Below, one piece after another: positions 13,841 through 32,434 of a DNA stretch of 64,000 bases. The notes beneath the pieces are model-generated. The model was not told the DNA's origin and made no database searches. It saw nothing but the letters and a program-made list of their open reading frames with translations. The number at the start of each line of letters is the position of its first letter. The stretch's first letter is position 1. Source of the stretch: Thermoplasmatota archaeon (GTDB lineage Archaea; Thermoplasmatota; Penumbrarchaeia; Penumbrarchaeales; Penumbrarchaeaceae); the NCBI GenBank assembly GCA_029762535.1, contig JARVGK010000002.1:64001-128000 (forward strand). Direction: 5' to 3'. The position numbers were made by a program, and so were the translations under genes.

Positions 13841-13938
13841 TCCATCAACGGCCGCGAGTATGCGGAGTCCTGGGCGCAGTGATGGATTTGGGTGAGGGGC
13901 GATCAGCGCCCCGAACTTTATACTCGCGAGTTAAAGGA
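13841..13938. repeat. attC-like hairpin (distal)
   Basis: AAC-ggc-CGCGAGTAT...atttgggtgagggg...ATACTCGCG-a-GTT; same architecture as the proximal sites. Confidence 0.8.
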
Positions 13939-14261
13939 AACGAACGTAGTTATCCCGCAGGATAACGTATTGAGAGCGGAGCATGGCACGGAGCGAAGCG
14001 AAGTGAGCTTTTCGTCTGCGAAGATCATACAGCTGACGTAGTTATTTCTTGCTCTATTTATCGTTCAGATCCTCCGTGAGGGGGTTCGATACACACTTTT
14101 GTGTCATGGTATTATGGATGTCGGAGAACTCAGATAAAGGAATTGGAGATGGCATCAAATTACCTGACGATGTGCATCAGGCGTAAGCAACGAAAAGTAT
14201 ATCTTCATGGCGTCCATGCGTAACACGAATTATAATATTGTGCCACCTGGAGATGACACAC

Positions 14262-15964: not shown

Positions 15965-15991
15965 AATGACTGAAAACTCGGGAAGTTCCAT

Positions 15992-17071: not shown

Positions 17072-17862
17072 ATCTCGTCACCCTCGATGATGTCTCGTTC
17101 GCTTACGGGAAGATACAAGCACTGAGTGATATCACTCTTTCCTTTCGGACAGGTTCACTGGTAGGCATGATCGGTCCCAATGGATCGGGAAAGACAACCC
17201 TCATAAGATGCGTTTGTAGGCTTGTCAGGCCCGAAAATGGAACCGTGACGATCAATGGCAGGGACCTCTCATCACTGAACAGTCTTGATCTGGCCCGCAT
17301 GGTGGGGTATGTGCCCCAGATGCAGGAGAAGGCCTTTCCAGTGCCTATATTCGAAGCTGTTCTTGCGGGGCGCATACCTCATCTGGGATGGGCTCCTTCG
17401 GACCATGATCTTGCCATAGTCAAAAACGTCCTGGAACTCATGGACCTGGAAGATATCTCCCAGAGGAACATCAACACACTCAGTGGGGGACAGATGCAGC
17501 GCGTACAAATCGCCCGCGCCCTGGCCCAGGAACCCCTGGTATTGTGCCTTGATGAGCCCACCAGCAATCTGGACATCAAGCATCAACTGGGGCTCATGCG
17601 CATGGTACGAGATCTGACCCGGAAAAGAAAGATGCTGGCCCTCATGGCCATCCACGACCTAAACCTGGCATCTCAGTACTGTGACCGATTGGTCCTCCTC
17701 CAGAACGGTGAGGTCTTTTCCTCGGGAACACCACAGGAGGTCCTGACCCGGAAGAACGTCAGGAACGCATTCAATATCAACGTGGCCATTCACACCCACG
17801 GCGATCTGATACACATCGTGCCCGTGGAGAACACTGATCTCAGGAGGCTTGAACATACCTGA
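17065..17862 (+). CDS. Iron/cobalamin-type ABC transporter ATP-binding protein
   Basis: GPNGSGKT, LSGGQMQRV, LDEPTSNLD, IHDLNLA; probable TTG start overlapping the permease stop. Confidence 0.9.
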   Translation: MVDLVTLDDVSFAYGKIQALSDITLSFRTGSLVGMIGPNGSGKTTLIRCVCRLVRPENGTVTINGRDLSSLNSLDLARMVGYVPQMQEKAFPVPIFEAVLAGRIPHLGWAPSDHDLAIVKNVLELMDLEDISQRNINTLSGGQMQRVQIARALAQEPLVLCLDEPTSNLDIKHQLGLMRMVRDLTRKRKMLALMAIHDLNLASQYCDRLVLLQNGEVFSSGTPQEVLTRKNVRNAFNINVAIHTHGDLIHIVPVENTDLRRLEHT

Positions 17863-17866
17863 ATCT

Positions 17867-17933
17867 TCTGGCAACCCGGTCCAAGGATGGAGTGGGTGCC
17901 ACCCTCGAAGATCCATGGCCGTGGGTTATCCGA
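17867..17933. repeat. Degenerate att-like hairpin
   Basis: aacccggtccaaggat...atccatggccgtgggtt, followed by gttatccgatccga, which is identical to the sequence at 22008. Confidence 0.45.
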
Positions 17934-17952
17934 TCCGAACGGAGTGATCCAT

Positions 17953-18050: not shown

Positions 18051-18161
18051 CCCGAGAGAAGCGAGAGCGCAGTGTGGTCGTGCACCGCATCCGAAGGCGA
18101 GGAGCGCAGAAGTTTCTAATTCTCCTGAACCACAGGGCTTGGCGTAGTTTTCAATAACCGG

Positions 18162-19544
18162 TTATGTTTCGTGAGGGGGAGTCTCATCCACCACTAACTC
18201 ATACCAGACATTGTTCCCACCGCCCTTTTTCACAATCTTGCCTTCCCTGATAAGTTCATTCAGGTCACGGAGGGCGGTGCCTCTGTGAATAGAGAAATGA
18301 TATTCAATGTCTTCTGCCATTATTCTCTCTTTAGCTTCAATAAAGTCCATAATCCACTTCAATCGATTTCCTTTGCGTTTGTTCCGCATTTGTATCTGTT
18401 CTTTGTCCGTTCTGTGCCCGATTTCCTTCGGTTCAGCTTCGGATTTGCTTCGGATGTCACGATGGAAGACGGCACTGAAAAAAGAACCAATCTCAAAATC
18501 GATTCCGAGATCGTACTCTTTCATCGATTTTCTCATCCTTTTAATGCCGGAGCCAGCTTTTTCCACCAGACCAAGTCTGTGAACCATGTCAGTTAAGAGA
18601 GGGTTTCTCTGAGCACTCCGTTTCCCCAGGTCTTCTTCCGGAAACAACAGCTTTCCCGGGTTCACTATTTCCACCCGCTCGGGGCTGATGTGTACCTGGA
18701 TGTTCGAGGAATAGAGATAATCCCTGTGTATCATTGCGTTTATGATGGCCTCCCGCAGGGCATCTTTCGGAAGCTCCAGCTTCGCGGTATGTTTCAGGCC
18801 GTCGATGATTATGGCAGTGTTCAGCTTTGACAGAAGATAATTGTTGGCGTCGTTCAGATTGGTGGCGAAGTCTACAGAGAATTCCTTCGAGTCTATGATA
18901 TCGATCTGCTCTTTATCGGCATACAGGAAGCAGGCCACCGTCGCATTGGGGAAATGTGATTTTACGTCCTTGGAAAAGAACAGAACGCCGCAGTTGTTCA
19001 GCTTTCCATTGGTCAGCAGGTTCAGGTTGCTCAGAATATGCTCTTTCGACAGGTCGCCGTCCAGCCCTGCTTCCTTCCGGAATCTGGCAAACGCGTCTTC
19101 TGAGAAATCCCGGTCTTTGAAATCAATGGTGTTTCTCTCGAAGGAGATGAGGTTCTCCTTCTGGAACAGTTCCCTAATCTCGTCCCTGTTCAGCTACTGG
19201 GAATTGGCGCCGTACCTCAGATAGAAGTGGCCGTTCACGGTGTAGGGCTTGTCCTTCCCTTCCGAGACGTATATCACCACCATATCTCTAACCTGCTCGA
19301 TCCGGGCATTGAAGGCGGGGTTCATGTTCCTGGCGATGTCTTGGATCTTCGACCTGTCGGAATTGGTCAGCTTGTAGCCTTTTATATCACCGGTCCTATC
19401 CTCAACACCGATTATTATCTTACCGCCGGAGGAGTTGGCAAAAGCACAGATGTCCTTTTCGATGGTACTGCTCAGCGACTCCTTCAGCTCGATGGTGTAG
19501 CCCTCACCGGTTTTCACGACATCAACAAGTTCTTCGTAGTTCAT
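18162..19544 (-). pseudogene. Schlafen/AlbA_2 + HATPase_c_4 + wHTH protein (RecG-like regulator family) interrupted by one in-frame TAG
   Basis: ORFs 19194-19544 (GEGYTIELKE, ICAFANSSGGKIIIGV) and 18162-18938 (ALREAIINAMIHRDY, RNPLL, EKAGSGI) are in the same frame; only the TAG at 19194-19196 separates them. Confidence 0.85.
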
Positions 19545-19678
19545 ATCTCAACCCCGAGTTGTTCTTCCATCATGATCTCGAACTGCCTTGAGATTAGCAA
19601 CCCCTTCTTCTTGCAATGCTCTTTGTATTTGTCGTATAGATCGGAATCCACGCTCAAAGTGACGTTTCTTGACGGCAT
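19541..19678 (-). CDS. Small RHH/CopG-like protein (45 aa), cassette leader gene copy 1
   Basis: Manual translation MPSRNVTLSVDSDLYDKYKEHCKKKGLLISRQFEIMMEEQLGVEI; ATGA overlap with the next gene; two homologs in this window. Confidence 0.85.
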   Translation of the reverse strand: MPSRNVTLSVDSDLYDKYKEHCKKKGLLISRQFEIMMEEQLGVEI

Positions 19679-19914
19679 GTTATCACATTCACAGGTAAAT
19701 GTCTGCATTGTTATTTAAATGTGTATGATCCGTAACCCACCCTCACTCCGGTTATTGAAAATTTAAATCGAGAGTTAGCGAGCCATTTAATGTGTGTTAT
19801 GCCTGGTTGCGTAGCAACCGAGTATCTGTTTCTTCTGGTGTTTCGTTAAACGAAGCCAAGCCCGTTTCTGGTGGTTCAGGTTCCACGATTAAAAGGAGGG
19901 GAAAATTAGGATTT

Positions 19915-19985
19915 TCGGATAACGGACGCGGCTAACCGAAGTTCGTGGGGAGAAGGTGCTTTAGCACCCGAAGCCTTAAAATGAG
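19915..19985. repeat. Damaged attC-like site (left arm intact, right arm deleted)
   Basis: tcggataacggacgcggctaaccgaagtt matches the left arms of other sites; only ttaaaatga remains of the expected gttaaatga core. Confidence 0.65.
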
Positions 19986-20133
19986 GTCGAGGCTTCGGTT
20001 CCGAAAATCATCCTGCCGCCGTAGTTTTTTCTTGCTCTGTTTTTATTCATCTTTTCGTTATCCGTCGTGGGGGGTGTTCCGGTATTCTCTATTCTGCTTG
20101 TTTTTTTCCAAAATGCCTCAATACTCGTATGCT

Positions 20134-21542
20134 TCATATAATCTCCCAGCGTCCTTCCTTTCGACCGCCCGTGCGTCTGAGCAAACCATCGGATTGCAGT
20201 TTTTGGATGTTTCGTTCTATTGATCGTTCAGTAACTCCTATAAGAGAAGCCAGTTCAGGAATTGTTATTGTGTCGTTCTTTTCGATCTCCTGCAATATCT
20301 TTCCTGACGTTTTTCCAACGCTTTCCCGACGCTTTCTCTGGCGATTCCTGTATATAAAAGCGGAATCGCGGTAGTGAATACCGGTCCATCCATATACTTT
20401 GGAACGCCGTCGGGCGTGTAATGAGGTAGATACTTCCCGATATTCATCATCCCGGATCCAATTTCTTCCACCCAGCTCAGTTGTGCAAAGAACTTTGCAA
20501 TAACGGGATTCTTGGAGAAGGGCACCACTTTTTCGGGGTCAAGGACTCCCTCGACCCTGTAGTTGCTTGCGTTAGTGGTTTCTACACGATCTTTGTAAAT
20601 TATCAATCGGGCTGGATGGGCGTTCATGTATTCGCGATGCACCAGAAAATTAGCAATAACTTCCCGGAATATCTTATCGCGTAGACTTATCCTAGCGTCT
20701 CCTTCCAGGTAAAATGGGTCTGGAAGATGTTTGGCAATAAAGGCCATGAGCCGGTCGTATGCTTCAATGAGATTGCAATCTATACGGTCGCGGTCGTCAT
20801 AATGGTCCATCTGAACCCGGCGAACCATGGCATCGATCTTGTAATGAGGTAAAACACTCCGTATGGTCTCGTCTTTTCCCAGTAGCAGGATGGCAGCAAG
20901 GGTATAGCCCTCATTCCCGGTTTCCTGATCCTTTCTGAAAAGCCCGGCCTTGAGCAACAGCTGCTCATCGTCCAATTCTCTCCACGGATGATTCGGTCCA
21001 CGGGTTAATATGAGATTACGAAGCCTGGGCAGCATGTCCAAACGCAAATCGTCAAGAGTTGTGGCAGAATAAATTATGTTCTCGGTGTATGTCGCCCGCT
21101 TCCGGTTACTAATCTCCGCGATCCGGTGGGGCTGGGTCACACGGAAATCGCCATCATTGCTTCGGTCGAAGACAACACCGTTGGTTTTATGCACCTAGGA
21201 ACTAGCAGGCACTGAAATATGCATGATCTTCTTTCCATCAAGAACATGTATAACGGGATGGAGGATGAACGGCGGATCCAGCTTTTGAGTATTATTGGAA
21301 AGATTGACCATATCTGTTTTCATCTTATCGATGGATTGCGGATCGATTCCCAATACCCTTCCTTGATCATCAACTCCGAGAAGAATGTCTCCTCCGTCCC
21401 GGTTCAGCATTGCACATATTGTTTCGAATAAACTCGTGGGAAGAGATTTTCTTGCTTCCTTGTATTCTACCCGGATACCCTCGCCCATTGCAAGCAGATG
21501 TTTAAGGCGAATTTGCATCGGGTCACTTTGCATTTTTCTCAT
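20134..21542 (-). pseudogene. Schlafen/AlbA_2 + HATPase_c_4 + wHTH protein with in-frame TAG and C-terminal frameshift
   Basis: VPASS*VHKT with TAG at 21195-21197; IFREVIANFLVHREY; the HTH ILQEIEKNDTITIPELASLIGVTERSIERNIQKL...RWEII lies in another frame ending at 20134. Confidence 0.85.
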
Positions 21543-21672
21543 CCTCTTTCATCTGTTCTTCCATCATGATCTCGAACTGTCTTGATATGAGCCAACCTTT
21601 CCTTTTACAGTAATCTCTGTATTTATTATAGAGATTTTCATCGAACCTTAAAGTAACGTTCTTTGAAGGCAT
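21523..21672 (-). CDS. Small RHH/CopG-like protein (49 aa), cassette leader gene copy 2
   Basis: Manual translation MPSKNVTLRFDENLYNKYRDYCKRKGWLISRQFEIMMEEQMKEDEKNAK. Confidence 0.85.
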   Translation of the reverse strand: MPSKNVTLRFDENLYNKYRDYCKRKGWLISRQFEIMMEEQMKEDEKNAK

Positions 21673-21916
21673 TTTAATCACTCACTGCACATACTTACAA
21701 ATGCATATAAATGCATCATTTTTGTTATATGACACCCCCCCCACGCCCGTTGAGCAAGAAAAATTTGGGTGAGCGGAGCGAACCATTTAACCGGTGTTAT
21801 ACTGGGTTGCGAAGCAATCTGGCACATGTCGTTATTCTCTTTTCGTGTGGGTTAAACGAAGGCGGCAGGAATAGATGATTTTCGCTTGTCTGGCCAATGC
21901 CGGGAGACGAAAAATT

Positions 21917-22016
21917 TCATTTAACGGACGCGACTATGCGAAGTTGCGTAGCGAAGCGGAGCAATTTGGGTCGAGCGAAGTGCAACGAGCGAGCCGTATA
22001 GTCGCGAGTTATCCGA
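21917..22016. repeat. attC-like hairpin
   Basis: ttAAC-gga-CGCGACTATGC-gaagtt...aatttgggt...gcc-GTATAGTCGCG-a-GTTat. Confidence 0.9.
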
Positions 22017-22060
22017 TCCGAGCTATGCGAGGATGAGCATCTTTGATGCGAACGTCGGGT

Positions 22061-22483
22061 TCAGTGGTTTTTATTAGCTATATTAAAGAGTTCTTTCGTC
22101 GAGAATCTCTTTAATTTGTCCTGTCTATCAAAATCCTTATCTTCAGTCCATATCCCACTTGCCTTAACCGCCAAACCTAAAGCTAGAAAGGGCGTATCTT
22201 TAATATCGATATCTTTCATGATTTCTTCAGCGAGTTCAAGATGATCTATGAATACATCCGATGGAATCAATTCGATTCTCTCGAGAATTGATAATAATAT
22301 GATGTCAAATTCTCTATCGGTTAACTTTGATTTTTCGATTAGGTAATGTCGATATTTTTCTATCTCTGTTATTACGTAATCTGGAGCAATAAAATTGAAC
22401 TCCTCATTGAAGATGATCTTTCTTGTTTGTGAATCTTTGATCAATCCAGCCATGATTCTATTTGAATCTATGACCATCTTCAT
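22061..22483 (-). CDS. PIN-domain (VapC-like) toxin
   Basis: VIDSNRIMAGL, EIEKY, DIKDTPFLAL, IWTEDKDF. Confidence 0.9.
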   Translation of the reverse strand: MKMVIDSNRIMAGLIKDSQTRKIIFNEEFNFIAPDYVITEIEKYRHYLIEKSKLTDREFDIILLSILERIELIPSDVFIDHLELAEEIMKDIDIKDTPFLALGLAVKASGIWTEDKDFDRQDKLKRFSTKELFNIANKNH

Positions 22484-22713
22484 GCGGATTGCTTCCTTTT
22501 GTAATGTTTGTAGATGCCTTCTTTGACCTTTTCATCGAGAGCCATGACTTCTTCTTCAGTCAGTTCGCTCTCTTGAGTCAAAGAGTCAAGCAATGCCAAC
22601 TTCTTTGCATAATCGGATATTGCCCTTCTAGCAATCTCGCTCCATCTGATCTCGCTGTGTTGTTTCATGATCACATGAATATCTGAAGGTACCGATAGGG
22701 TTATGTTGGGCAT
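22480..22713 (-). CDS. RHH-type antitoxin (VapB-like)
   Basis: MPNITLSVP...EIRWSEIARRAI; ATGA-coupled to the PIN gene. Confidence 0.8.
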   Translation of the reverse strand: MPNITLSVPSDIHVIMKQHSEIRWSEIARRAISDYAKKLALLDSLTQESELTEEEVMALDEKVKEGIYKHYKRKQSA

Positions 22714-22730
22714 ATGATTACCACACAGGC

Positions 22731-22755
22731 ATATGTGATATCACATATTTATTAA
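22731..22755 (-). promoter_or_regulatory. TA promoter: TATA-like box plus perfect 18-bp palindromic operator
   Basis: atatgtgatatcacatat (22731-22748) is self-complementary and abuts TTAATAAA on the minus strand upstream of the antitoxin ATG. Confidence 0.7.
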
Positions 22756-22779
22756 TTGCCGTAACCACTGAACCCGATG

Positions 22780-22879
22780 TCGGATAACGGACGCGACTAT
22801 GCGAAGTTGCGTAGCGAAGCGGAGCAATTTGGGTCGAGCGAAGTGCAACGAGCGAGCCGTATGAGCGCGAGTTAAGTTC
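22780..22879. repeat. attC-like hairpin
   Basis: Identical to the 21917 site from taacggacgcg through gagccgtat; ends in GTTaagttc. Confidence 0.9.
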
Positions 22880-22972
22880 CCCGAGCCGAAGTTATCCGTA
22901 AGGATAACGTAGGCGAGAGCGCAGCGTGGTCCGGAGTTATCGAAGATAACGACGGAAGTTGACCAGGATCAA

Positions 22973-23143
22973 TTAAGAAAACAATATCAAATATACAATG
23001 AATATCAGTATTATACTAAGGAGAATATAAAAGGGAATACTCTTGCCTTTTTTTGCTAAATAGATTAATAACCCTATAATAGCAAGGATAAATGAAAGAA
23101 GACAACATCCCGGAATTAATAAAAAATATGTTGGCATTCCCAT
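22973..23143 (-). CDS. Small two-TM membrane protein (56 aa), single-gene cassette
   Basis: Manual translation MGMPTYFLLIPGCCLLSFILAIIGLLIYLAKKGKSIPFYILLSIILIFIVYLILFS; AGGAG SD 7 nt upstream; fills the cassette exactly. Confidence 0.75.
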   Translation of the reverse strand: MGMPTYFLLIPGCCLLSFILAIIGLLIYLAKKGKSIPFYILLSIILIFIVYLILFS

Positions 23144-23174
23144 TAATATTCTCCTGTAAAAATGCTGGTCAATT

Positions 23175-23274
23175 GAACTTAACGGACGCGACTATGCGAA
23201 GTTTGCGAACGTAGTGAGCAAATTTGGGTGAGGGGCGGGCCGAGCCCCGAACCGCATAGTGGCGTGTTATTCGC
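23175..23274. repeat. attC-like hairpin
   Basis: ttAAC-gga-cgcgACTATGC-gaagtt...aatttgggt...aacc-GCATAGTggcg-t-GTTat. Confidence 0.9.
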
Positions 23275-23344
23275 CCCGAGCCGTAGGCGAGAGCGCAGCG
23301 TGGTCCGAAGTTATCCGAAGGATAACGAAGGAAGTTGAGGGGGT

Positions 23345-23743
23345 CTAATGCCCGGATAAGAATTCGGAAGATTGAATGATCCTCACGCTATCATATTGCT
23401 TGATCTTCAGTAAATGATTATCTCCCGAAATGATATATTCAGCCTTTCCTAAAATTGCTGTTTCCAAGACCATGTTATCCTTTGGATCATCTTCGATGAC
23501 ATATAGAGAATCTGTTATGAAAACGAGATCAGACATCAAGATCAAACTTTGAATGAAAGCATGGATCTTATCATCCGGGACATGGAACTTTTTTCGAAGA
23601 ACCATCTCAGTTTCTGAAAGAATCTGTTCGGAGGTGACAGATCTTATTTTTCCTGACTTGCATCTTGTCAATAATGACCTTTCATTCCCATTCCAGAAAA
23701 AGCCAGAGATGAGAATGTTCGAATCAAGGACTATCCGGACCAA
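23345..23743 (-). CDS. PIN-domain toxin (PIN_3 type)
   Basis: IVLDSNILISG, DDPKDNMVLETA, YIISGDNHLL. Confidence 0.9.
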   Translation of the reverse strand: MVRIVLDSNILISGFFWNGNERSLLTRCKSGKIRSVTSEQILSETEMVLRKKFHVPDDKIHAFIQSLILMSDLVFITDSLYVIEDDPKDNMVLETAILGKAEYIISGDNHLLKIKQYDSVRIIQSSEFLSGH

Positions 23744-23746
23744 AGA

Positions 23747-24013
23747 TCAATTCTCCTTGGATCTGATTTCCTTTATTGCTTTAAGTACATCTGATTTCTT
23801 TAACATCTTCTCCTTGGCGAAATCACTTCCCCAATGGAGAAGATTTTGGAAATCCTCATCGGTGGGGATGTCGATCTTTTTCAGGACTATCGTTTCGTTC
23901 TCTCCATACATGGCAAAGAACTCACCGGGTTTGAATCCGAGGAGTTCGCGAAGGTCTTTCGGTATCACGATCTGCCCTTTGGAGGAGAGCCTTGTGATGG
24001 TTACTTCGGACAT
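23747..24013 (-). CDS. AbrB/MazE/SpoVT family antitoxin
   Basis: TRLSSKGQIVIPKDLRELLGFKPGE; inverted repeat agtaaga-cca-tcttact (24021-24037) just upstream of the ATG. Confidence 0.9.
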   Translation of the reverse strand: MSEVTITRLSSKGQIVIPKDLRELLGFKPGEFFAMYGENETIVLKKIDIPTDEDFQNLLHWGSDFAKEKMLKKSDVLKAIKEIRSKEN

Positions 24014-24087
24014 GGTAATAAGTAAGACCATCTTACTATTTCATTTTTTCGGGTACTTGTAGACGATCACATTAAACCCCCGAAATT

Positions 24088-24182
24088 GCGAATAACGTCC
24101 TGGGGATATGGGAAGTTGGCCGAAGGCCAATTTGGGTGAAGGGTCTGCAAGACCCGTAACCTCATATCCCCATGTTATCTTC
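24088..24182. repeat. attC-like hairpin
   Basis: atAAC-gtcc-TGGGGATATG-ggaagtt...aatttgggt...aacct-CATATCCCCA-t-GTTat. The stem sequence differs from other copies but still pairs. Confidence 0.9.
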
Positions 24183-24322
24183 CCCGAGCGATAGCGAGAG
24201 TGCAACGGGGTCGAGGCACGAAGTGCCGAAGAAGTTTGAAACCCTGCCGTAAATTCCGTTGTTGCCGTAGTTTTTTCTTACTCTATTCATCGTTCACGTT
24301 CTCCGTGGGGGTGTTCCGTTTA

Positions 24323-26920
24323 TCATGCTTTCAACTCTAATTTTTCATTAAATGCTCCAATGAAATTTGTTTTCAGATCTTCATTGTAGAATGGAAGCCC
24401 GATAATTTTGTATTTCGTATTTTCTGCCAGTATCTCGATTTGATAATTTCCTTCAATGTTTGTTAGGAATTGCTGTTTCCAGTCATCTTTTTCAAGTAAG
24501 TGACTTCCTTTCGGTTCGATGAAAACCTGGTAATAGAGAATTTGTTTGGTTTTTTTCTCTTTTAAGAATAGGACAAAATCTGGTTCAAGAGAATTTCCAT
24601 CTGAAAAGCGATAAAGCTGGAAAATTTTCTGGTTTCTAAGTAGATATATATCTGAATATCTTTTTTGTAATTTATCAATTGCATCGTTTATGAATCTTAC
24701 AAAGTATTTCTCTTCTGATGTTCCATAATTTTCTTCATATACATACCAGTCCTTGTTTTTTAGGTCTAATCGTAAATCTAGTTTTAGAGTTTCACTCATC
24801 CCAATACCGATTTCTTTGTCAGATGTGTCATTTACTGCGATATTGATTATTTTGTCTTCTACTAAATCTTTAATTTTGCTTGCTTTGAATAATATAGTCC
24901 CGACATATTCAGTATAACCAGATTCGATATTGCTTTGAAGTTTCTTCAAAACCTCTGTACATATTTCCAGTTTATCATCACAATTGAGTGAATCTAATTT
25001 TGTAATTGAAGTCGTTACCTCTACCTGAACATCTTTTAAAGCTTCAATGAACTTGCTGATAGATTTTGATTTAGGGAAATATTTTTTCAGGTTATTAAAT
25101 TTGTAAAAATCCAACCTGGTTAGAGATTTTCGCATAATTTGAATTCCGAAGTCGTTCAGTTTAAAAATCTTTGATCTTTTCTCTTCAACATCTTTCTTCT
25201 TTTCCCCGTTGAATATAGTAGAATCTCTAACATATCCTGTTCTGAGACCAATTTTATACAATTTATCGATGTCCAAATCTGATATATCCTTGATTTTAGT
25301 TCTATCTGATTTTTTCTTTTCGTTGATGAATATCAGGCCATTAGACCAAAAATCTGATTTCTTAAACCCATCTTTGACTTTCAAATGGATTTCTCGCTTT
25401 TCCGGTGGCATGATGCCAGATTCCACCAAAGCTGTAGTCAATTCTTGAATGTATCTTGGGTTATGGGCACTGTGGTAATAAAGCTCTTCAAGAATTTTCA
25501 ACTCGTTGTTTGGTTCCTCATCGTATTTTCTCTTGAATCGCTCCTGTTCATCTGTTATTGTGAAAGGAAAATATCTAGCGCCTCTCCCGATAAGTTGGGC
25601 TTCTGCGATGGTCGTTTTACCAGGCTTCCCTGCTTTTGCATCTCTAGTATCATAAAGTCTTACAATGTCAAATAGATTGAGAACATCCCAACCTTCGTTA
25701 AGCATACCGACTGCAAAAACAACCCGAATTTCGTTATCTTTATCCTCAAGCGAATTAACTAGTAACTGTTTCTTTTCACTCTCACTTTTAGAATTGACTG
25801 ATAAACACTTATTCTCATGAAATTCTTCTTTAATCTCTGATACCAAATTCTCCAATGTAATGTCATTTTCTTCAAAATAATTAAAAGCCGTATTAAGAAT
25901 CGATTTTTGTTCAACATTGTTTTTTATTTTTGATATGTCGCTAATTTTCAAGGATTTGATCTTTTTCTTAAATTCATCTTCAATAGTGGTAGATTCATCA
26001 ATGGTTCTGGATTTCAACAGGATTACTGGCTTAATAAATTTCTTATGCTTTTCTGCAATCTTTCGTCTATATTGACTTAGGATGACTGACTGTAATGTCC
26101 TTTCTATTGGCTTTAAATCTGCCTCCATCACTTTGACTTCCTTTGAATACCCGTCTAATCTAAACTGTTTTAATGAGTAATCATAGATTATTTTACTATC
26201 GTATTTATCTCTAATTGCTGGATGACTCAAATCAACGGTGGCGGTATACTCCAGCATGATATTTCCCAGGTTTGAATTGAAGATATTATTTACGGTATGT
26301 TCCCAGGTAGTTTTGGCTAATTTTTCTTCCTTACCCAATTTATTCTTTGTCCAAGCATTGATATGGTGGGCTTCATCGGAAATGATTACGATTTTTTTAT
26401 CCTTGAAGTCCTCGTAAGTCATGCTGTTCTCGCGCGGGGTATTCATGAAACAGTGAAGCCCCTGGATTGTGGTAAAATGGATATTGATCGCATCAGGGTT
26501 AGCACCCTCGAAATTTTCTACCGGACTAATGAAAACCTCTTTTTCTCCAAATTTTATGTGTTCGTTGAACAGATATTTTGATGAAAGTAGATTTAAGAAA
26601 TTATCTTTAGTCTTTTCTATGATGTTGGTACTATTCACAAAGAAAAGAAAATTCCGATAACCTTTCTCATAAAGATAGAGAATATTGGCGGCCATCAATA
26701 ATGTTTTTCCGCTTCCAGTGGCCATGTGAAACAGCAATTGCGTTGGTTTGATTCTCCTTTTATCTTTTTCATAATTATAAATGAATCTGCGTATAGCTTC
26801 CAGTTGATATTCTCTCAATTCAAACAAATGATTCAGATTATTTGTAATATTGTCTGGAATCTCAGTACCCAGCAAGCCCTGTTCTGAAAGAACATCATAC
26901 GTTTCCTTCAAAGTGGGCAT
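24323..26920 (-). CDS. res: Type III restriction enzyme Res subunit (DEAD/DEAH helicase + PD-(D/E)xK)
   Basis: HMATGSGKT, SDEAHH, LNEGWDVLNLFDIVRL, QLIGRGARYFPF, EPDF...IEPKG. Confidence 0.9.
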   Translation of the reverse strand: MPTLKETYDVLSEQGLLGTEIPDNITNNLNHLFELREYQLEAIRRFIYNYEKDKRRIKPTQLLFHMATGSGKTLLMAANILYLYEKGYRNFLFFVNSTNIIEKTKDNFLNLLSSKYLFNEHIKFGEKEVFISPVENFEGANPDAINIHFTTIQGLHCFMNTPRENSMTYEDFKDKKIVIISDEAHHINAWTKNKLGKEEKLAKTTWEHTVNNIFNSNLGNIMLEYTATVDLSHPAIRDKYDSKIIYDYSLKQFRLDGYSKEVKVMEADLKPIERTLQSVILSQYRRKIAEKHKKFIKPVILLKSRTIDESTTIEDEFKKKIKSLKISDISKIKNNVEQKSILNTAFNYFEENDITLENLVSEIKEEFHENKCLSVNSKSESEKKQLLVNSLEDKDNEIRVVFAVGMLNEGWDVLNLFDIVRLYDTRDAKAGKPGKTTIAEAQLIGRGARYFPFTITDEQERFKRKYDEEPNNELKILEELYYHSAHNPRYIQELTTALVESGIMPPEKREIHLKVKDGFKKSDFWSNGLIFINEKKKSDRTKIKDISDLDIDKLYKIGLRTGYVRDSTIFNGEKKKDVEEKRSKIFKLNDFGIQIMRKSLTRLDFYKFNNLKKYFPKSKSISKFIEALKDVQVEVTTSITKLDSLNCDDKLEICTEVLKKLQSNIESGYTEYVGTILFKASKIKDLVEDKIINIAVNDTSDKEIGIGMSETLKLDLRLDLKNKDWYVYEENYGTSEEKYFVRFINDAIDKLQKRYSDIYLLRNQKIFQLYRFSDGNSLEPDFVLFLKEKKTKQILYYQVFIEPKGSHLLEKDDWKQQFLTNIEGNYQIEILAENTKYKIIGLPFYNEDLKTNFIGAFNEKLELKA

Positions 26921-26921
26921 G

Positions 26922-28928
26922 TTATAACACTCCGTAGAAGCGTTTGTTTATTTCTTTGTCCTCGTCTGATACGCCATAATCCTCGTCATCAATTTCGTTG
27001 AAATTAACATAAAGCTGATTTTTATCCAGACACTCAATTAGGAATGCCTTTTGGTTCTCCAAGTCCAAGTCCTTGAAATCTTGAGCATTTTCATCGAATT
27101 GCTTCGGATCTATTCTGTAACTAAGGAAAGCTTCTTTTTTCATCTTATCCCATATTGCCAATAAATCTTTTATTGTCTTTGCTTCTTGAATTTTATCCAT
27201 ATAGGATTCATTCCATTTCATCAGTTCACAATAAATAAATTCACCACCACCTTCCCACTTTACATATTTTGAGATACCAGATTGATCATAATTTTCAATT
27301 TTCTCTATTAATTTACCCTTTGAGTTTGCATTTCCGATAACATTTTTTAATCTCATAAGCGAATCATTTTTACCATAATCCAATTGTTCTATGCCGAGAT
27401 ATTTTCTACCCAACTTATGCGCAACTGCACATGTTGTACCACTACCTAAGAAGAAATCCAAAACAATATCTCCCTTATCAGTTCCCATTTCAATTATTCT
27501 CCTTAAAAGTTTTTCTGGTTTTTTACCACGTTTTAATTTAACATTACCTTCATTAGCAATTCCTTCCCAAGGTATATCCGTCCATATATTTGATAATAAA
27601 TTTGTTGGAACGAGATTACCATCAATGTTTCTAACCTTGTTATTATAAAAAGTAATTTCTTTTCCATTTAAGATATATCTATCAGTTAAATTATCTCTTC
27701 GATTAACAAATACTTTATCCAGATTCTTCAAAGATTCTTCCTTTATGTCTAATGTTTCCTTTCCAGCATCAATGTTTATTTCTGTAAATCGAAAGACTCT
27801 TTCCTTATTATTCAAGGCATAGTCCGCTAATTCAGATAAAGTACGATTTGTTCCTAATTCTTTTTTTAAATATCGACTATTTTTAACCTTAAACTTTTCC
27901 GCAATAATATCTTTAATATTTGAATAAGTCCAATTTGATGGGTTTTCTTCAATATTGTCTATCTGAAATGAATAATTTTCATCATAATTAGTTTCTTCGT
28001 ATTGAGTGATGTACTTCCACAACTTTTTAGACTTTGCATAAATTAATATATATTCGGCACTTTCAAAAACTCCCAAATTTACAGTTTTAAAACCAGACGG
28101 AGATCGAGTTTTTATACTAATAAGATTAATGAAATTATTATCAAATATTTCATCTAGTAATATTCTTAATCTGGATACATGAATGTCGCTAATTTGAATG
28201 AAAATGGCCCCATCCTTACATAGTAATTCTCGTGCAATTTCTAATCTGTTTTTCATAAATGTAAGCCATGTTGAGTAGTTAAAACTATCATTATACTGAA
28301 ACTCATCATTCCCTGTATTGTAGGGAGGGTCAATGTAAATTAATTTAATTTTTCCAGCATATCTTTTTTTCAATGAATGCAAAGCAAGGAGATTATTACC
28401 TTTAATCATGATATTATCTGTTGTTTTAATTTCTTCTATGTTATGCTCTCCTTTTGCATCAATCCGTTTTAAACCAGTCAATACTTTAGGATCGAATAAT
28501 CTGTCAATCTCATCAGGAGCAAGAATTTCATTCCAAAATATTTCTTTGCGATTTTTTTCTTCGGGATCTTCCATTCCGCCTTCCAAAACGCAATCTTTGT
28601 ATGGCCAGGATAGAACCACTTCACTACTTTTTGTTAGGTATTCGTTTTGTGTTGTAAGTCCAATCTTGTTTTTGAAAGTGGTGTACGAATCTGGTAAGAA
28701 TTCTTTGTTATCAACGAATTTCATGAATTTTTCTTTGTCAAAAATGATTGCTTTATTTACAATTTTAAAGAAATGCACTTTTAATTTTTCGTTTTCAAGA
28801 AGGAGGGAAATCAGCTCATCATCGAGTTTAAGACCAAGTTCGATTATTTTATTTTTCAATAATTTATCATCTGAAACTAAACGTTCATCCTTTTTTAATG
28901 TGTCAATCATTTCATCAATTAACGTCAT
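26922..28928 (-). CDS. mod: Type III R-M DNA methyltransferase (Mod, N6-adenine)
   Basis: IKGNNL, IYIDPPYNTGND, KKPEKLLRRII, VLDFFLGSGTT. Confidence 0.95.
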   Translation of the reverse strand: MTLIDEMIDTLKKDERLVSDDKLLKNKIIELGLKLDDELISLLLENEKLKVHFFKIVNKAIIFDKEKFMKFVDNKEFLPDSYTTFKNKIGLTTQNEYLTKSSEVVLSWPYKDCVLEGGMEDPEEKNRKEIFWNEILAPDEIDRLFDPKVLTGLKRIDAKGEHNIEEIKTTDNIMIKGNNLLALHSLKKRYAGKIKLIYIDPPYNTGNDEFQYNDSFNYSTWLTFMKNRLEIARELLCKDGAIFIQISDIHVSRLRILLDEIFDNNFINLISIKTRSPSGFKTVNLGVFESAEYILIYAKSKKLWKYITQYEETNYDENYSFQIDNIEENPSNWTYSNIKDIIAEKFKVKNSRYLKKELGTNRTLSELADYALNNKERVFRFTEINIDAGKETLDIKEESLKNLDKVFVNRRDNLTDRYILNGKEITFYNNKVRNIDGNLVPTNLLSNIWTDIPWEGIANEGNVKLKRGKKPEKLLRRIIEMGTDKGDIVLDFFLGSGTTCAVAHKLGRKYLGIEQLDYGKNDSLMRLKNVIGNANSKGKLIEKIENYDQSGISKYVKWEGGGEFIYCELMKWNESYMDKIQEAKTIKDLLAIWDKMKKEAFLSYRIDPKQFDENAQDFKDLDLENQKAFLIECLDKNQLYVNFNEIDDEDYGVSDEDKEINKRFYGVL

Positions 28929-31405
28929 TTCTTTTCCTCCTTATTATTCGAAATTAAATTCCAGTTTACGCTTCCACAATTACATCTTACGCCACTTTGT
29001 TTCATTCCATCTGCTGTAATTTTCAATATACCACCACAACTATGACATGAAAAGAGATAATATAAATCTTGAAATGCCTCTTTTATAGGTCGAAAGTCTT
29101 TATCACTAAAGTTTATCCAATTATTAAAATGAACGTTTGCATTAATTCCCCATTGTTCAGCATATGTGCGTTTATAAATGCTAGAACGCATTGAATCTAA
29201 TTCTTCAAATTTTGCCGTCTTTTCTGATTTTTCCCAGGAAACTGATGATTTTTTAGCCTTTTTAATTAAGTCCTTATATCCATCCATTAATGGTATTGTA
29301 AAATCACCAAGATCTAGCTGGCCGTTTAATTTGTATCGTACTCGTATCTGTAATGAATCACACACTAGCCCAAAATACTCTTCCAAACCGCGTCTTAATC
29401 TCGAAGCAGCAGAAGGAACATCGTTTCTTGTCAAATCTTCTTCAATTTTACTCCAGAGGTCTGCTTGAAGATTTACTTGAGGCCCTGTATCAACTTTCCA
29501 ATTATAGAATTCAACCATGCAACTCTTATTATCAACAACTCCTTCACTTCTCATTTGATTAGCCCATGTCTTATCATGGGTTGTGATTAAAAATTGTCTG
29601 TTTGGGAAATTTGATGCAAGCACGCGACAAATATCTCGCCTATGATTCGAATCCACAGACATTATTACATCATCTAAGATAATGAGGTCAATAAGACCTT
29701 CTGCCAAACGTTCAGATAGAGCCAAATATAAACAAAGCCCCATACTATCTTGATGACCTTCACTGTGGAGGGCTTGTGGAGAAAAAGCCCCTCGGCCATA
29801 AAAATCAACTTCAAATTTTAATGCCGCCCCATCTGGTGAAATAGTCGCGGAAAAATCTTTTTCGTCTGAACCATGTAATTCTTTATATAATTGCACAAAG
29901 CGATCATTTACATCTTTGTAAAGATTTCCCAATATAGTATCTCTGGAATATTCAAATGTATTTAACAATATCTCTGCTTTTTTATATGAGATACTTGCGT
30001 TTTTAAAATCATTTTTTGCTTTTTCAAGACCTTTTAAATTTTCTTCAAGGCGTGTTAATGTATCCCACGCAGTTTGTTCAGGGGTTATCGGTGGCGCTTT
30101 GGTTTTAACAATTTCTATTAGAGTTTGAAGATTTTGTTTAATTTCCTCAGAAATAAGCATGTGTTTTACTCTGTCGCTATCAAATTCGATCAATGGATAT
30201 TTTTCGAGTGGATTAGCTAATGCTATGGATAACTGATTCAAATCTGACGAACATGTTTTCAATTGGATGCTCCATTCCTTTTCCTCAATTTTATTTAATA
30301 CCTCAATTATTTTATTTATGCTTCCTCTTGTATTGTTCACACGCTTTGATATGGAATCGGACAAAGATGTAATTCTGTTTCTTTGTTGTGATATTTCTTC
30401 AATATCAGTCAATTTTGAGGTAAGATATTCATCTAATTTACCGCTTGGCCACTGTGTATCACACAATGGGCAGTTACCCGTGTCATCGATCATAGATTTT
30501 CCAAGTTCAATTAATTGAAATCGATTGTATGTTTTCAATAATTTCGGATTCGATTTTATAGAGTTTAGAAGATTTCTAAGTTCTTTATCAAATTCAATGA
30601 TTCCTTTTTGATTCTTTTCGTCAAAGGAATTATGAATATTTTGAATATCTTTTTCAAATATAGTAAGATTGACATGATTGTCGTTGATAATACTGGTAGG
30701 TGGCGTAAGGGCCTTTTTTAACGTATCTGAAGAAACCGAATTCAATTCATTACTTTTTAATGTTTTACGTAATTGATTTACGTAATCCAGTAGCATCTTT
30801 TCATTAAATGATGTTGTTTGAATTGTTGCGTTAACCTCACCTTTTTTCTCATCTATTGCTTCTTCTTTTGTCTGCTTTTCTCTTTTAAAAGTATTTTCAA
30901 TATTTACAAATGCTTTTCTTATTATTTCAATGTCTGATATATTTAATAATGCTTGAATCTCCTGGGCACGTGTACTACCATCAGAGGTAATATATTTTAA
31001 AATTTCTCGTCTTGTTAATACATGTTCTCCCCTCGATGCAAGGGATAAAATGGGTTCAAGATTAGGTAAATATTTTTCATCAGATACAACTAACTTAGTG
31101 GGTTGTGCCATATCTCTTTTTATTTCAATAGGAACATTAATTTTTGGAAATTGAATAACTGCACGTACAATAGCATCTTTTGGCTTGTGATCAATATGTG
31201 GGCCACATTCTTTCAATTTGATATTGCGAGTTCCCTCTCCCTTTAAACGAGAAATTCGACCTGTTAAGAGGAAATCAATGGCATCAACAACAGCACTTTT
31301 CCCTGAACCATTTGGCCCCCATATTACTATATTTTTTCCTTGGGGCGTTAGTTTTATATGGGTTATACCCCGCACATTTTCAATTTCAAGCTCAATCAGT
31401 TTCAA
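28925..31405 (-). CDS. Rad50/SMC-like ABC ATPase with zinc hook and possible C-terminal HEPN (RloC-like)
   Basis: GPNGSGKS, coiled coils, CPLC hook, HSEGHQ signature, ILDDV, ITTHD; C-terminal LRRGLEEYF...INANVH. Confidence 0.7.
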   Translation of the reverse strand: MKLIELEIENVRGITHIKLTPQGKNIVIWGPNGSGKSAVVDAIDFLLTGRISRLKGEGTRNIKLKECGPHIDHKPKDAIVRAVIQFPKINVPIEIKRDMAQPTKLVVSDEKYLPNLEPILSLASRGEHVLTRREILKYITSDGSTRAQEIQALLNISDIEIIRKAFVNIENTFKREKQTKEEAIDEKKGEVNATIQTTSFNEKMLLDYVNQLRKTLKSNELNSVSSDTLKKALTPPTSIINDNHVNLTIFEKDIQNIHNSFDEKNQKGIIEFDKELRNLLNSIKSNPKLLKTYNRFQLIELGKSMIDDTGNCPLCDTQWPSGKLDEYLTSKLTDIEEISQQRNRITSLSDSISKRVNNTRGSINKIIEVLNKIEEKEWSIQLKTCSSDLNQLSIALANPLEKYPLIEFDSDRVKHMLISEEIKQNLQTLIEIVKTKAPPITPEQTAWDTLTRLEENLKGLEKAKNDFKNASISYKKAEILLNTFEYSRDTILGNLYKDVNDRFVQLYKELHGSDEKDFSATISPDGAALKFEVDFYGRGAFSPQALHSEGHQDSMGLCLYLALSERLAEGLIDLIILDDVIMSVDSNHRRDICRVLASNFPNRQFLITTHDKTWANQMRSEGVVDNKSCMVEFYNWKVDTGPQVNLQADLWSKIEEDLTRNDVPSAASRLRRGLEEYFGLVCDSLQIRVRYKLNGQLDLGDFTIPLMDGYKDLIKKAKKSSVSWEKSEKTAKFEELDSMRSSIYKRTYAEQWGINANVHFNNWINFSDKDFRPIKEAFQDLYYLFSCHSCGGILKITADGMKQSGVRCNCGSVNWNLISNNKEEKK

Positions 31406-31595
31406 GTTCTTCCCTCGAAGTAGTTTTTAATACGCTGATAATTTTTTTAGTATCAGCTAATTGTCCTGTTGAATTAAGTTCACGAAGCTTATTGATGGTC
31501 ACCACATTAAATTCATCTTTATCATTGAGGTCTGAAAACATTTTATCAAGTATGTGGTCAATCAATGAAGATGTTTGTATTGTTTCGGGAGTCAT
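31392..31595 (-). CDS. Small hypothetical protein translationally coupled to the ATPase
   Basis: 67-aa ORF overlapping both neighbours, with a GGAGGT SD. Confidence 0.65.
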   Translation of the reverse strand: MTPETIQTSSLIDHILDKMFSDLNDKDEFNVVTINKLRELNSTGQLADTKKIISVLKTTSREELETD

Positions 31596-31732
31596 TTATT
31601 TACCTCCTTCATCTGTTCTTCCATCATAATTTCAAATTGTCGGGATATGAGCCACCCCTTCTTCTTACAGAATCCTTTGTATCGTTCGTAAAGGTCTTCA
31701 TCAACACTGAGGGTTACGTTCTTTGAAGGCAT
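31592..31732 (-). CDS. Small RHH/CopG-like protein (46 aa), cassette leader gene copy 3
   Basis: Manual translation MPSKNVTLSVDEDLYERYKGFCKKKGWLISRQFEIMMEEQMKEVNK; ATGA overlap; CTTATATA TATA box upstream. Confidence 0.85.
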   Translation of the reverse strand: MPSKNVTLSVDEDLYERYKGFCKKKGWLISRQFEIMMEEQMKEVNK

Positions 31733-31993
31733 GATAATCACATTCATCTCCAAATGTCAGCAAATGTATATAAGTATTCGCTTTTTCCGTTTCTATTCGT
31801 TGTTCGGAACACCCCCCACGTCCATAGAGTAAGAAAAAATTTGGGTATTCGCTTTGCGAATCCGTTTAACATCCGTTAGCCGAGAGTCTGGACTTGTCCA
31901 GATTTTGGTGGTTCTTTCCGTCTTGTTTCCGTTAAACGAAGGCAACAACGTCATGAATTTACGGTCTCCTTTTCATAGGCATGGTTTCAAATT

Positions 31994-32111
31994 GAAGATA
32001 ACGGAACGCGGGTATGCGAAGTGAATATGTTTCCAGTGCGGTTCCTCAGCAGAGTATTCATTTGGGAGAGCGAGTGCAACGAAGCGAACCGCATACCCGC
32101 GTGTTAAGTCC
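31994..32111. repeat. attC-like hairpin (most proximal)
   Basis: atAAC-gga-ACGCGGGTATGC-gaagt...atttggga...aacc-GCATACCCGCGT-GTTaag: perfect 12-bp stem with a 3-nt bulge next to the core. Confidence 0.9.
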
Positions 32112-32434
32112 TCCGAATGAAGTTATCCTACGGATAACGAAATGAGAATGCAATGAGATCGAGCACCGCAGACCGTTAGGTTGAGGAGCGGAGAAGTTGG
32201 CCAGCCAAGAACGTTGTTCGGGACACGGTGGATTTTTTACTACCAATCTACCCCACAAGGGTTATAGGTCGAGGGTGTCTTGCTTGTAAGTCGAGGGGTT
32301 TGAAATACTTGTCAAACCAAGATTTGACCATGGCGAGGTTTACTATCTTTTGGGTTATCGTTCTGACCATTATTATTTTAGAGTTGCAATATGATTTGTT
32401 CAAATTTTCTGATGAATTCGTAAGTAAAAGAGAT

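Follow-up and report, generated by a model that had tools for sequence, protein, structure and literature searches.

A small predicted ribbon-helix-helix gene behind an archaeal promoter heads diverse defense operons in archaea, frequently within attC cassettes

In a 64,000-nucleotide (nt) stretch of DNA from a Thermoplasmatota archaeon of the Penumbrarchaeaceae (positions 64,001–128,000 of the forward strand of contig JARVGK010000002.1, assembly GCA_029762535.1; hereafter, the window), three cassettes of an integron-like array, denoted here W1, W2 and W3, begin with homologous genes encoding proteins of 45–49 amino acids (aa) that, judging from predicted models of the family, very likely represent a divergent branch of the ribbon-helix-helix (RHH) fold. 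Together with an archaeal promoter that contains short repeats, this gene forms a header that also precedes restriction-modification (R-M) and other defense operons in a broad variety of archaea; it is a general header of defense operons, frequently but not exclusively captured in attC cassettes. On balance, and with some reserve, we interpret the header as a mobile, autoregulating controller of the operon that follows it, an RHH analogue of the C-proteins of R-M systems. The coordinates of all features of the three cassettes are given in Table 1.

The three intervals are clean open reading frames (ORFs) that start from an ATG (MPS...) on the minus strand; a reading on the plus strand was ruled out, the intervals being stop-filled in that direction. 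The encoded proteins are 68–77% identical to each other, with 29 invariant columns (MPS.NVTL..D..LY..Y...CK.KG.LISRQFEIMMEEQ). An earlier reading of this DNA from its letters alone (hereafter, the sequence-only reading) had placed three homologous genes of 45–49 aa at the heads of cassettes at the same positions, and both this assignment, now with the strand specified as minus, and the consensus proposed for the three proteins are borne out. The DNA motif at the start codons of W1–W3 has exactly 3 occurrences, compared to 0.19 expected, and the three genes are the sole copies of the family in the host genome (2.96 Mb, 93% complete). Among 75 copies of the RHH gene, the pairwise nonsynonymous divergence (pN) is 0.12–0.18, and the synonymous divergence (pS) is about 0.86, that is, synonymous sites are saturated. 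Because pN is low despite this saturation, the peptide is evidently subject to purifying selection, and the three ORFs can be taken as true coding genes; their sequences also mark them as old, independently acquired relatives, not recent duplicates.

Searches of protein and genome databases delineated a large family of such proteins. At least 138 clusters at 90% identity were retrieved by a protein search, all of them unnamed, 44–86 aa long and originating from Argoarchaeum, Thermoplasmatota, Woesearchaeota and Nanoarchaeota. With an exhaustive profile search, 317 family clusters at 50% identity were obtained, all consisting of small proteins. A genome scan identified 74 family loci, nearly all in archaeal metagenome-assembled genomes, from Woese-, Nano-, Pace- and Aenigmarchaeota, Methanosarcinales (including Syntrophoarchaeum), Thermoplasmata, Bathyarchaeota and Halohasta. 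Within the class of the host, the family is present in 2 of 37 genomes, and none of the viral contigs searched encodes a relative. Because this distribution is patchy and crosses phyla, it indicates, at the level of sequence, horizontal mobility of the family. A few RHH-led modules are located on short contigs binned as bacteria, namely, Candidate Phyla Radiation, Bacillota and Gammaproteobacteria (L027, L038, L043, L050, L059 and L069); one of these, L043, is almost identical to the Nanoarchaeota locus L040, and another, L027, resembles L005, such that mis-binning seems more likely than cross-domain transfer.

The case for the RHH fold comes from divergent members and from predicted structures. 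Among the divergent members (alignment A6), 30 of 68 match DUF6364 (best 6.6e-8) and 25 of 68 match RepB-RCR_reg (best 1.7e-5), with further Pfam matches to CcdA, ParG, RHH_5, CopG_antitoxin, BrnA and RelB, of which those to RelB, CcdA, BrnA and CopG are weak similarities to antitoxins. A sequence-profile search of the PDB gave weak matches to pArc and ParG; a match to the picornavirus 3A protein, produced via the string ‘CKKKGW’, was rejected as a chance hit. The ten nearest named clusters in the ESM Atlas are all RHH families. In the model of the W2 monomer, an extended segment (residues 1–11) is followed by two helices (12–25 and 31–48), and the small protein ends a few residues past helix 2. 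Fold searches with this monomer (Foldseek against the PDB, VIA-wide, BFVD) were uninformative, as might be expected of a fold that exists only as an intertwined dimer. However, three metagenomic members (P0188, P0162 and P0184) contain the RHH unit twice in tandem, through a natural duplication, and so are single-chain pseudo-dimers, similar to TraY. The model of P0188 (predicted local distance difference test, pLDDT, 91.7; predicted template modeling score, pTM, 0.81) consists of two consecutive β-α-α units (E5-13 H14-26 H31-44 / E61-69 H70-82 H87-102). Thus, a β-α-α topology within about 45 residues is found both in the W2 monomer and in the tandem protein, and in the predicted P0188 model, the N-terminal strands are paired as an intertwined antiparallel ribbon. 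The best Foldseek matches of P0188 are chains E/F/G of the F-plasmid relaxosome (probability 1.00, template modeling (TM) score 0.66, root mean square deviation (rmsd) 3.3 over 97 columns), followed by AvtR; we take these chains, of 105–120 residues, to be the tandem-RHH protein TraY. VIA-align likewise put the relaxosome chain 9f0x_E on top (Z 8.8, rmsd 3.3, 98 residues), ahead of AvtR (4hv0, Z 6.7) and single-chain Arc (1u9p, Z 6.3), with DndE and then dozens of single RHH domains, including RelB, DinJ, NikR, SvtR, PutA, omega, AmrZ and ORF56, among the further neighbors. The suggestion of the sequence-only reading that the small protein is an RHH protein thus agrees with the predicted fold of a tandem relative and with the Pfam matches within the family.

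The RHH gene leads into operons of widely varying content. The distance between the stop codon of the RHH gene and the start of the gene behind it is −26 to +5 nt in most of the loci, and a long co-oriented operon follows; in the window, W1 and W3 overlap the next gene by ATGA, and W2 by 20 nt, confirming the overlaps already noticed in the sequence-only reading. The first cargo genes of 70 loci fall into 27 BLAST clusters, in line with the earlier description of the cargo as unrelated and variable. An R-M gene (type I, II, IIG, III or IV) comes first in 49 of these 70 loci, and at least one R-M gene is present in the operon in 53; most of the operons with a different first gene are headed by other defense genes. 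Among the representatives of the first-gene clusters, there are HsdM and HsdR of type I systems, type III Mod, the NgoPII endonuclease, C5 methylases, an EcoRI-like methylase, type IIG enzymes, Mrr, GmrSD, HATPase_c_3, AlbA_2, a PDC-S37/Hhe-like helicase-nuclease, UvrD+PD-(D/E)XK, RadC, an LmuB-like protein and an IrrE-helix-turn-helix (HTH) gene followed by a DUF4411 gene; GmrSD, AlbA_2, the PDC-S37/Hhe-like and the LmuB-like proteins are counted outside R-M. Cluster representatives of the later genes include HsdS, an SNF2+NOV_C helicase and DUF4411. In about a quarter of the RHH-led operons, the first gene encodes an unannotated protein. The combinations are not fixed: one class of header is found ahead of many cargo types, and one cargo type is found behind different header classes.

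In the window itself, the cargo had been recognized from the sequence alone as two divergent Schlafen-ATPases and an ATPase-Mod-Res operon; this holds, with the addition that the W3 operon starts with a 67-aa ORF. The AlbA_2 cargos of W1 and W2 are 23% identical to each other, and each is interrupted by an in-frame TAG about 116 codons in, after which the frame remains open for more than 300 codons. Decoding of these codons as pyrrolysine was considered and ruled out: no PylS scored above the cut-off, TAG is the stop codon of 15 of 37 long host ORFs, and the intact, 86% identical orthologue of the W1 cargo in the Thermoplasmata locus L029 has CAG (Gln) at the position of the TAG. Given that the cargos are TAG-interrupted, that TAG is a normal stop codon in the host and that PylS is lacking, two of the three local modules head nonsense pseudogenes. 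Two independent nonsense changes in one kind of cargo suggest either selection against its expression or recent decay.

The 100 nt upstream of the RHH gene are laid out alike in nearly all loci. Of 72 copies, 66 have a TATA-like hexamer between −62 and −30 (mode −43 to −40), compared to 11 of 72 in a control window, and 54 have a Shine-Dalgarno (SD)-like motif. In W1–W3, the TATA-like octamers that the sequence-only reading had quoted are present as described, 39–42 nt ahead of the ATG, and each header contains a GTGAT SD-like motif; the promoter architecture of W3 is reproduced identically in two other loci (L007 and L074). At or just after the TATA box, there are two, sometimes three, repeats spaced by about 1–2 helical turns (10–20 nt), which make up a candidate operator; the conservation of the TATA box with these repeats in 66 of 72 copies supports the notion that the promoter is part of the module. 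The host genome carries genes for the TATA-binding protein (TBP), a family that was matched, among the control genomes, only in the archaeal ones; hence, the host is an archaeon.

The sequence of the candidate operator differs with the class of the N-terminal β-strand of the protein. The SKSVTLKV class is associated with two copies of ATATGTCTAA; the SKNITLRVN class with TACAAATGTGCATATTTGTA, inverted repeat TACAAAT-N6-ATTTGTA; the SKNVTLSVD / SRNVTLSVD class with ACATTTG/ACATTTA repeats and an inverted GAATGT (in the SKNVTLSVD form, ACATTTG-N3-ACATTTGG..GAATGT); and the SKNITLKVD class with AGCTGTGCAAACATTTATT. The residues that vary between the strand classes are those at positions 5 and 9; in known RHH proteins, the side chains at these strand positions point outward and read the bases. 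This correspondence between repeat class and strand class is suggestive, having the look expected of a cognate regulator-operator pair.

Comparison of W1 with L029, the locus that shares its AlbA_2 cargo, points to exchange between headers and cargos. The two DNAs are 90–100% identical from about position 19585 through the cargo, beginning with the last third of the RHH gene (the FEIMMEEQ segment); further upstream, the identity is 37–77% in the remainder of the RHH gene as well as in the repeats, TATA box and leader, and the headers belong to different classes. The breakpoint is sharp (19578–19590). Because the identity jumps inside the RHH gene, its conserved 3′ part must contain a recombination breakpoint at which headers and cargos were exchanged, a result that lends substance to the earlier idea of a reusable module.

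The cassettes W1–W3 are embedded in an array of imperfect palindromes of about 90 nt that spans 13.3–37.8 kb of the window (13290–37780), has a G+C content below that of the flanks and adjoins a divergent tyrosine recombinase. A crude palindrome scan gave a signal only about 2-fold above that of shuffled sequences and was abandoned for covariance models built from the window sites aligned with look-alikes from related loci; a second iteration gave no new loci. In the model alignment, the outer stem is paired in 94% of the cells, with compensatory changes in 10 of the 12 L-box pairs, and the pairing falls to 29–43% once the register is slid. By these sequence features, the sites are of the attC type and form one family common to archaeal phyla (TAAC-L''-hairpin-CCCAAATT-hairpin-AACTTC-L'-GTTA). 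The same family (model R2) is found in arrays of Thermoplasmatota-like, Methanosarcinales and DPANN genomes (L012, L020, L024, L030, L036, L040 and L046). W2 and W3 are flanked by covariance-model matches with E values of 1e-9 to 1e-14, and the attCs around W1 are degenerate. The recombinase (36855–37655, plus strand, 266 aa) reaches 187 bits with integrase_gron (cut-off 265) and 185 bits with XerA_Arch (cut-off 220), and matches the IntI model in two pieces, skipping positions 189–240; because it falls below both cut-offs and skips this region, we refer to the array as integron-like. Another attC-like left arm is located beyond the recombinase (37759–37780).

Across the family, an attC was detected in 22 of the 74 loci (about 30%) in addition to the window. 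In 17 loci and in W2 and W3, the attC ends 190–420 nt ahead of the RHH start codon, and therefore, the RHH gene is the first gene beside the site. Where a boundary is present at each end, RHH cassettes measure 1.9–7.8 kb, vs 0.2–1.7 kb for neighboring cassettes. About 20 loci with 10-kb flanks on both sides produced no attC match with the single attC model used, so that other site families are possible, and in L004, the same 250-nt leader is located directly behind an unrelated gene. The sequence-only reading had regarded the modules as a subclass of cassettes, to be given up if homologs occurred mostly outside cassettes; within the sensitivity of one attC model, the counts above are of that kind, and the restriction to cassettes fails.

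With respect to the attC, the ORFs of ordinary cassettes are encoded on the CCAAAT strand. The RHH modules share this strand in the window, L012, L029 and L074 and, weakly, in L017 and L053 (about 6 loci), but occupy the opposite strand in about 18 (L018–L020, L022–L024, L030, L036, L040–L043, L046, L050, L052, L054, L070 and L076). Because both orientations relative to the attC occur, the module can be expected to have its own promoter: orientation independence is a prediction for a self-promoted unit and argues for such a promoter at the sequence level. The modules depart from the pattern of a promoterless, single-ORF, co-oriented cassette, being multi-gene units that contain a TATA box and, in the ~18 related loci, are reversed. 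The earlier proposal that expression is independent of the position in the array is made plausible by the occurrence of the module in either orientation.

The controller reading can be spelled out as follows. The header unit would consist of the RHH gene and, ahead of it, an archaeal TATA promoter, a pair of helically phased repeats located on the TATA box or just past it, and an SD-like motif; the RHH gene would be translationally coupled to whichever operon follows. The RHH dimer would bind the repeats at its own promoter and, once bound, would compete with TBP, transcription factor B and RNA polymerase, such that negative feedback would set the transcription of both the RHH gene and the whole downstream defense operon. 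The outcome would be fast but capped expression that varies little with genomic position, orientation, copy number or host, as might be useful for nucleases and methylases that arrive by transfer. Functionally, the RHH protein would be an archaeal counterpart both of the C-proteins and of the RHH autorepressors at the head of toxin-antitoxin or plasmid operons. The conserved 3′ coding segment (SRQFEIMMEEQ) would serve as the junction for recombination between headers and cargos. The comparison with C-proteins drawn by the sequence-only reading fits this scheme, with 49 of the 70 operons beginning with an R-M gene. A more sweeping version of the controller reading, in which the RHH gene with its promoter is a pan-archaeal plug-in header of defense operons and a new fold class of controllers, the 3′ segment is an adapter for homologous recombination that joins any header, each with an operator specificity of its own, to any cargo, and the cassettes are expressed either way without the common cassette promoter (Pc), is put forward here only tentatively, as a possibility that we would not favor at present.

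Several points weigh against the controller reading. The evidence for the fold is a predicted model of the relative P0188, not of the W1–W3 proteins; none of these proteins reaches the threshold of any curated family scanned, with no match at E ≤ 0.01 in the Pfam scan (the best being ParG at 0.08), and an hhalign profile-profile comparison with five RHH_1 proteins of the host genome gave a probability below 1%, that is, no signal. The match between operator class and strand class could equally be produced by co-inheritance of linked DNA. DNA binding to the repeats, repression, the physiological role and the transcription start are all features that we infer. With methylase and nuclease genes in one operon behind the RHH gene, a delay of restriction relative to methylation in the style of C-proteins is not obvious. 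Finally, the W1 and W2 headers, with their nonsense-interrupted cargos, may drive nothing useful locally.

Alternative roles of the RHH protein have to be weighed against these data. One is a positive or bistable controller that, at a low level, activates the promoter of its own operon and, at a high level, represses it, resulting in a delayed, switch-like establishment after transfer. The predominance of R-M cargo is compatible with such a switch, as are the order RHH-endonuclease-methyltransferase in the NgoPII group, which mimics C-R operons, and the two or three repeats per promoter, which might be sites of differing affinity. Nevertheless, we consider it unlikely: the TATA box is overlapped or immediately followed by the repeats, an arrangement that in archaea typically goes with repression, as for SvtR and F55 of archaeal viruses, and given that the methylase is co-transcribed in most loci, activation would not separate modification from restriction. 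A role outside transcription, as a DNA-architectural accessory for mobilization of the module (a TraY/NikA-like protein or an excisionase-like directionality factor that would bind the leader and help the recombinase with long cassettes), appears still less probable. It would account for the relaxosome accessory chain being the best structural match, for the length of the RHH cassettes compared to their neighbors, for the clamping of these cassettes by co-varying inverted repeats near the attCs, and for the half-attC-like pieces in the leaders (see below); yet, no attC is detectable in the ~20 loci with 10-kb flanks, the conserved repeats are located at the TATA box and the ribosome-binding region of the RHH gene rather than at the attC, and the tight translational coupling to the cargo is what would be expected of an operon regulator.

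Two further alternatives are, in our view, both highly improbable. The RHH protein could be an antitoxin-like or immunity partner that neutralizes the downstream protein directly, similarly to the RHH antitoxins of type II toxin-antitoxin (TA) systems. The order of genes, a small RHH gene followed by one for a potentially toxic protein, resembles that of TA operons, and there is the weak Pfam similarity to RelB, CcdA, BrnA and CopG antitoxins, but a protein of 45–50 aa is a DNA-binding domain alone, without a C-terminal toxin-binding tail, its partner varies among 27 unrelated first-gene families, mostly methyltransferases, and a single header class precedes many cargo types. Alternatively, the peptide could lack a function, with the upstream frame conserved solely as a means of ribosome loading and of translational coupling to foreign cargo genes, as the nearly universal stop-start overlaps (ATGA, −4 to −26 nt) might suggest; such a role is at odds with the strong purifying selection on the amino acid sequence in the face of saturated synonymous sites, with the confident prediction of the RHH fold and with the natural tandem duplications of the domain.

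Comparison with known systems helps to place the header. The C-proteins of bacterial type II R-M systems, such as C.AhdI, C.Esp1396I and C.Csp231I, are small, dimeric, DNA-binding controllers of the HTH type (PMC1885659, PMC3488213, PMC3115060). The RHH protein is likewise small and predicted to bind DNA as a dimer. Like the RHH gene, the genes of C-proteins stand at the head of an R-M operon, frequently run into the gene behind them and spread horizontally along with the R-M system. C-proteins act on repeated operator sites in their promoter, the C-box, for which the repeats of the RHH header, which vary with the protein class, are candidate counterparts. The placement of the RHH gene directly before R-M genes is C-protein-like. 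However, C-proteins have an Xre-like HTH fold, are known from bacterial type II systems and control the restriction gene apart from the methylase gene, whereas the RHH header, with its archaeal TATA promoter, precedes whole type I, II, IIG, III and IV operons as well as non-R-M defense operons. Because the fold is RHH and not HTH, the family would be a functional analogue only, not a member of the C-proteins. The literature searches turned up only HTH controllers, and no RHH-type C-protein or RHH leader of R-M operons.

CopG/RepB-RCR_reg of rolling-circle plasmids, omega and the archaeal virus proteins SvtR, AvtR and F55 have the same fold (predicted in the present case) within about 45–55 aa. 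Autorepressors of the CopG/omega/SvtR type bind phased repeats over their own promoters, and binding to such repeats is predicted for the RHH header; a swappable header before defense operons, often inside attC cassettes, is a feature of the RHH header that has not been described for those families. The antitoxins of type II TA systems with the RHH fold differ from this family in having a cognate toxin and a toxin-binding C-terminal extension, neither of which is found here. Aca regulators are another case of a conserved small gene linked to highly variable cargo, enabling discovery through guilt by association; they are mostly HTH proteins, usually encoded after acr genes on phages, whereas the RHH gene is located before host defense operons and was not found in viral contigs.

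In Vibrio chromosomal integrons, some cassettes, such as TA cassettes and the Sucellos defense cassette, have their own promoters (bioRxiv 10.1101/2024.07.02.601686), and in work on bacterial integrons, defense cassettes are described as mostly promoterless and streamlined. Archaeal integrons have been described (Ghaly et al. 2022, PMC9668308), with mention of neither cassette promoters nor RHH proteins. Integron cassettes resemble W2 and W3 in being attC-bounded carriers of defense or R-M genes, and an internal promoter permits expression away from Pc and in the reverse orientation. Unlike the defense cassettes of bacteria, the RHH modules are large and multi-gene, share one homologous promoter-regulator header across phyla and are also found where no attC is detected.

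The leaders and trailers of the three modules show an additional regularity. The large cassettes are each clamped by their own inverted repeats, with the leader motif (for example, AAATTTTTCTTGCTC..CGTGGGGGGTGTTCCG) found inverted just past the last stop codon. The paired segments are 18116–18161 with 19748–19761 and 19850–19910; 20001–20081 with 21730–21880; 24247–24318 with 31805–31845; and 32222–32238 with 36671–36687. The variant of the clamp co-varies within a cassette, and W1 has its own version. Short inverted pairs of the GGGGGAGTTCC type are also present in L017, L062, L046 and L070; a k-mer search for module-flanking inverted repeats in the other loci yielded short partial matches only. 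The clamps could work as oligo-T terminators that insulate the cassette on both incoming strands, or could pair in the excised circle. Compared to the trailer arm, the leader arm contains an extra insert of about 95 nt (19770–19870, 21765–21865 and 31845–31945, minus strand), which is present also in the leaders of L004, L007, L029 and L053 and resembles a circularly permuted attC: a 3′-half-like CTTCGTTTAAC is followed by a 5′-half-like TAACA..GGTTAAAYGG..ACCCAAATT.

Other units of the window differ from the RHH-led cassettes. The cassette beside W3 (32435–36532, minus strand) encodes a 1365-aa homologue of TmtA of the Tiamat defense system (PADLOC, 5.8e-66), with a sacsin-like HATPase and NOV_C domains, and has its own, different flanking inverted repeats. 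A small two-gene cassette (22061–22713, minus strand) has two genes, for proteins of 77 aa and 140 aa, that overlap by 4 nt, together with a short leader and an AT-rich sequence of its own that resembles a promoter; the pair has no match in Pfam or NCBIfam and may be TA-like. A 4-kb unit within the array (13934–17950) carries an ATP-binding cassette (ABC) transporter operon on the opposite strand (14768–17862, plus), consisting of genes for a periplasmic binding protein, a FecCD permease and an ATPase; its G+C content of 0.53–0.58 is host-like, unlike that of the other cassettes. In the flank of the array (58936–60600, minus strand), there is a full-length glutamine--tRNA ligase (glnS equivalog, 716 bits), an enzyme uncommon in archaea, beside genes for tRNA-Glu and tRNA-Gln.

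Table 1. Features of the RHH-led cassettes W1–W3 (positions in the window)
Feature	Interval	Strand	Description
W1 RHH gene	19541..19678	minus	45 aa, MPSRNVTLSVD...
W1 promoter core	19685..19722	minus	TATA TTTAAATA (19712-19719); ACATTTA x2, 20 nt apart (19716-19722, 19696-19702); inverted GAATGT, then GTGAT SD-like motif
W1 leader	19679..19914	minus	Variant AAATTTTCAATAACCGG...GGGTGGGTTAC
W1 cargo	18162..19544	minus	AlbA_2/Schlafen + HATPase_c_4 gene, TAG-interrupted at 19194-19196
W1 trailer	18116..18161	minus	W1-type leader arm inverted, CCGGTTATTGAAAACTACGCC...
Degenerate attC between W2 and W1 cassettes	19915..20000	minus	Right arm intact, left arm deleted; missed by the covariance model
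W2 RHH gene	21523..21672	minus	49 aa, MPSKNVTLRFD...
W2 promoter core	21685..21716	minus	TATA TTTATATG (21704-21711); ATGCATTT x2, 10 nt apart (21709-21716, 21699-21706)
W2 leader	21673..21920	minus	Motif order as in the W3 leader
W2 cargo	20265..21542	minus	Divergent AlbA_2 + HATPase_c_4 gene, TAG-interrupted at 21195-21197
W2 trailer	20001..20081	minus	Leader motif inverted
attC-like site upstream of W2 cassette	21921..22012	minus	
W3 RHH gene	31592..31732	minus	46 aa, MPSKNVTLSVD...
W3 promoter core	31740..31774	minus	TATA CTTATATA (31767-31774); ACATTTG x2, 10 nt apart (31761-31767, 31751-31757); inverted AATGT (31740-31744)
W3 leader	31733..31997	minus	About 265 nt from attC to start codon; TTCGTTTAAC, GTTAAACGG, ACCCAAATTTTTTCTTACTC, CGTGGGGGGTGTTCCG (half-attC-like piece + one inverted-repeat arm)
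W3 cargo gene 1	31392..31595	minus	67-aa protein of unknown function; also first cargo gene in L007 and L053
W3 cargo gene 2	28925..31405	minus	SMC_N/AAA_21 ATPase, LmuB-like
W3 cargo gene 3	26922..28928	minus	Type III Mod methyltransferase
W3 cargo gene 4	24323..26920	minus	Type III Res
W3 trailer	24247..24318	minus	Leader motif inverted, CGGAACACCCCCACG...AGAGTAAGAAAAAACTACGG
attC-like site upstream of W3 cassette	31998..32107	minus	
attC-like site closing W3 cassette	24092..24178	minus	

Almost nothing is known about the regulation of R-M and other defense operons in archaea or about the expression of archaeal integron cassettes, and a single conserved header, found from DPANN archaea to Methanosarcinales and Thermoplasmatota before R-M operons of types I, II, III and IV and further defense operons, would bear on both. 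If the proposed function is correct, the header would provide a regulator-operator pair with natural specificity variants for studies of archaeal transcription and for synthetic biology, and would explain how large, potentially toxic defense cassettes can be carried in either orientation. The family could then also be used as bait for new archaeal defense systems among the unannotated cargos.

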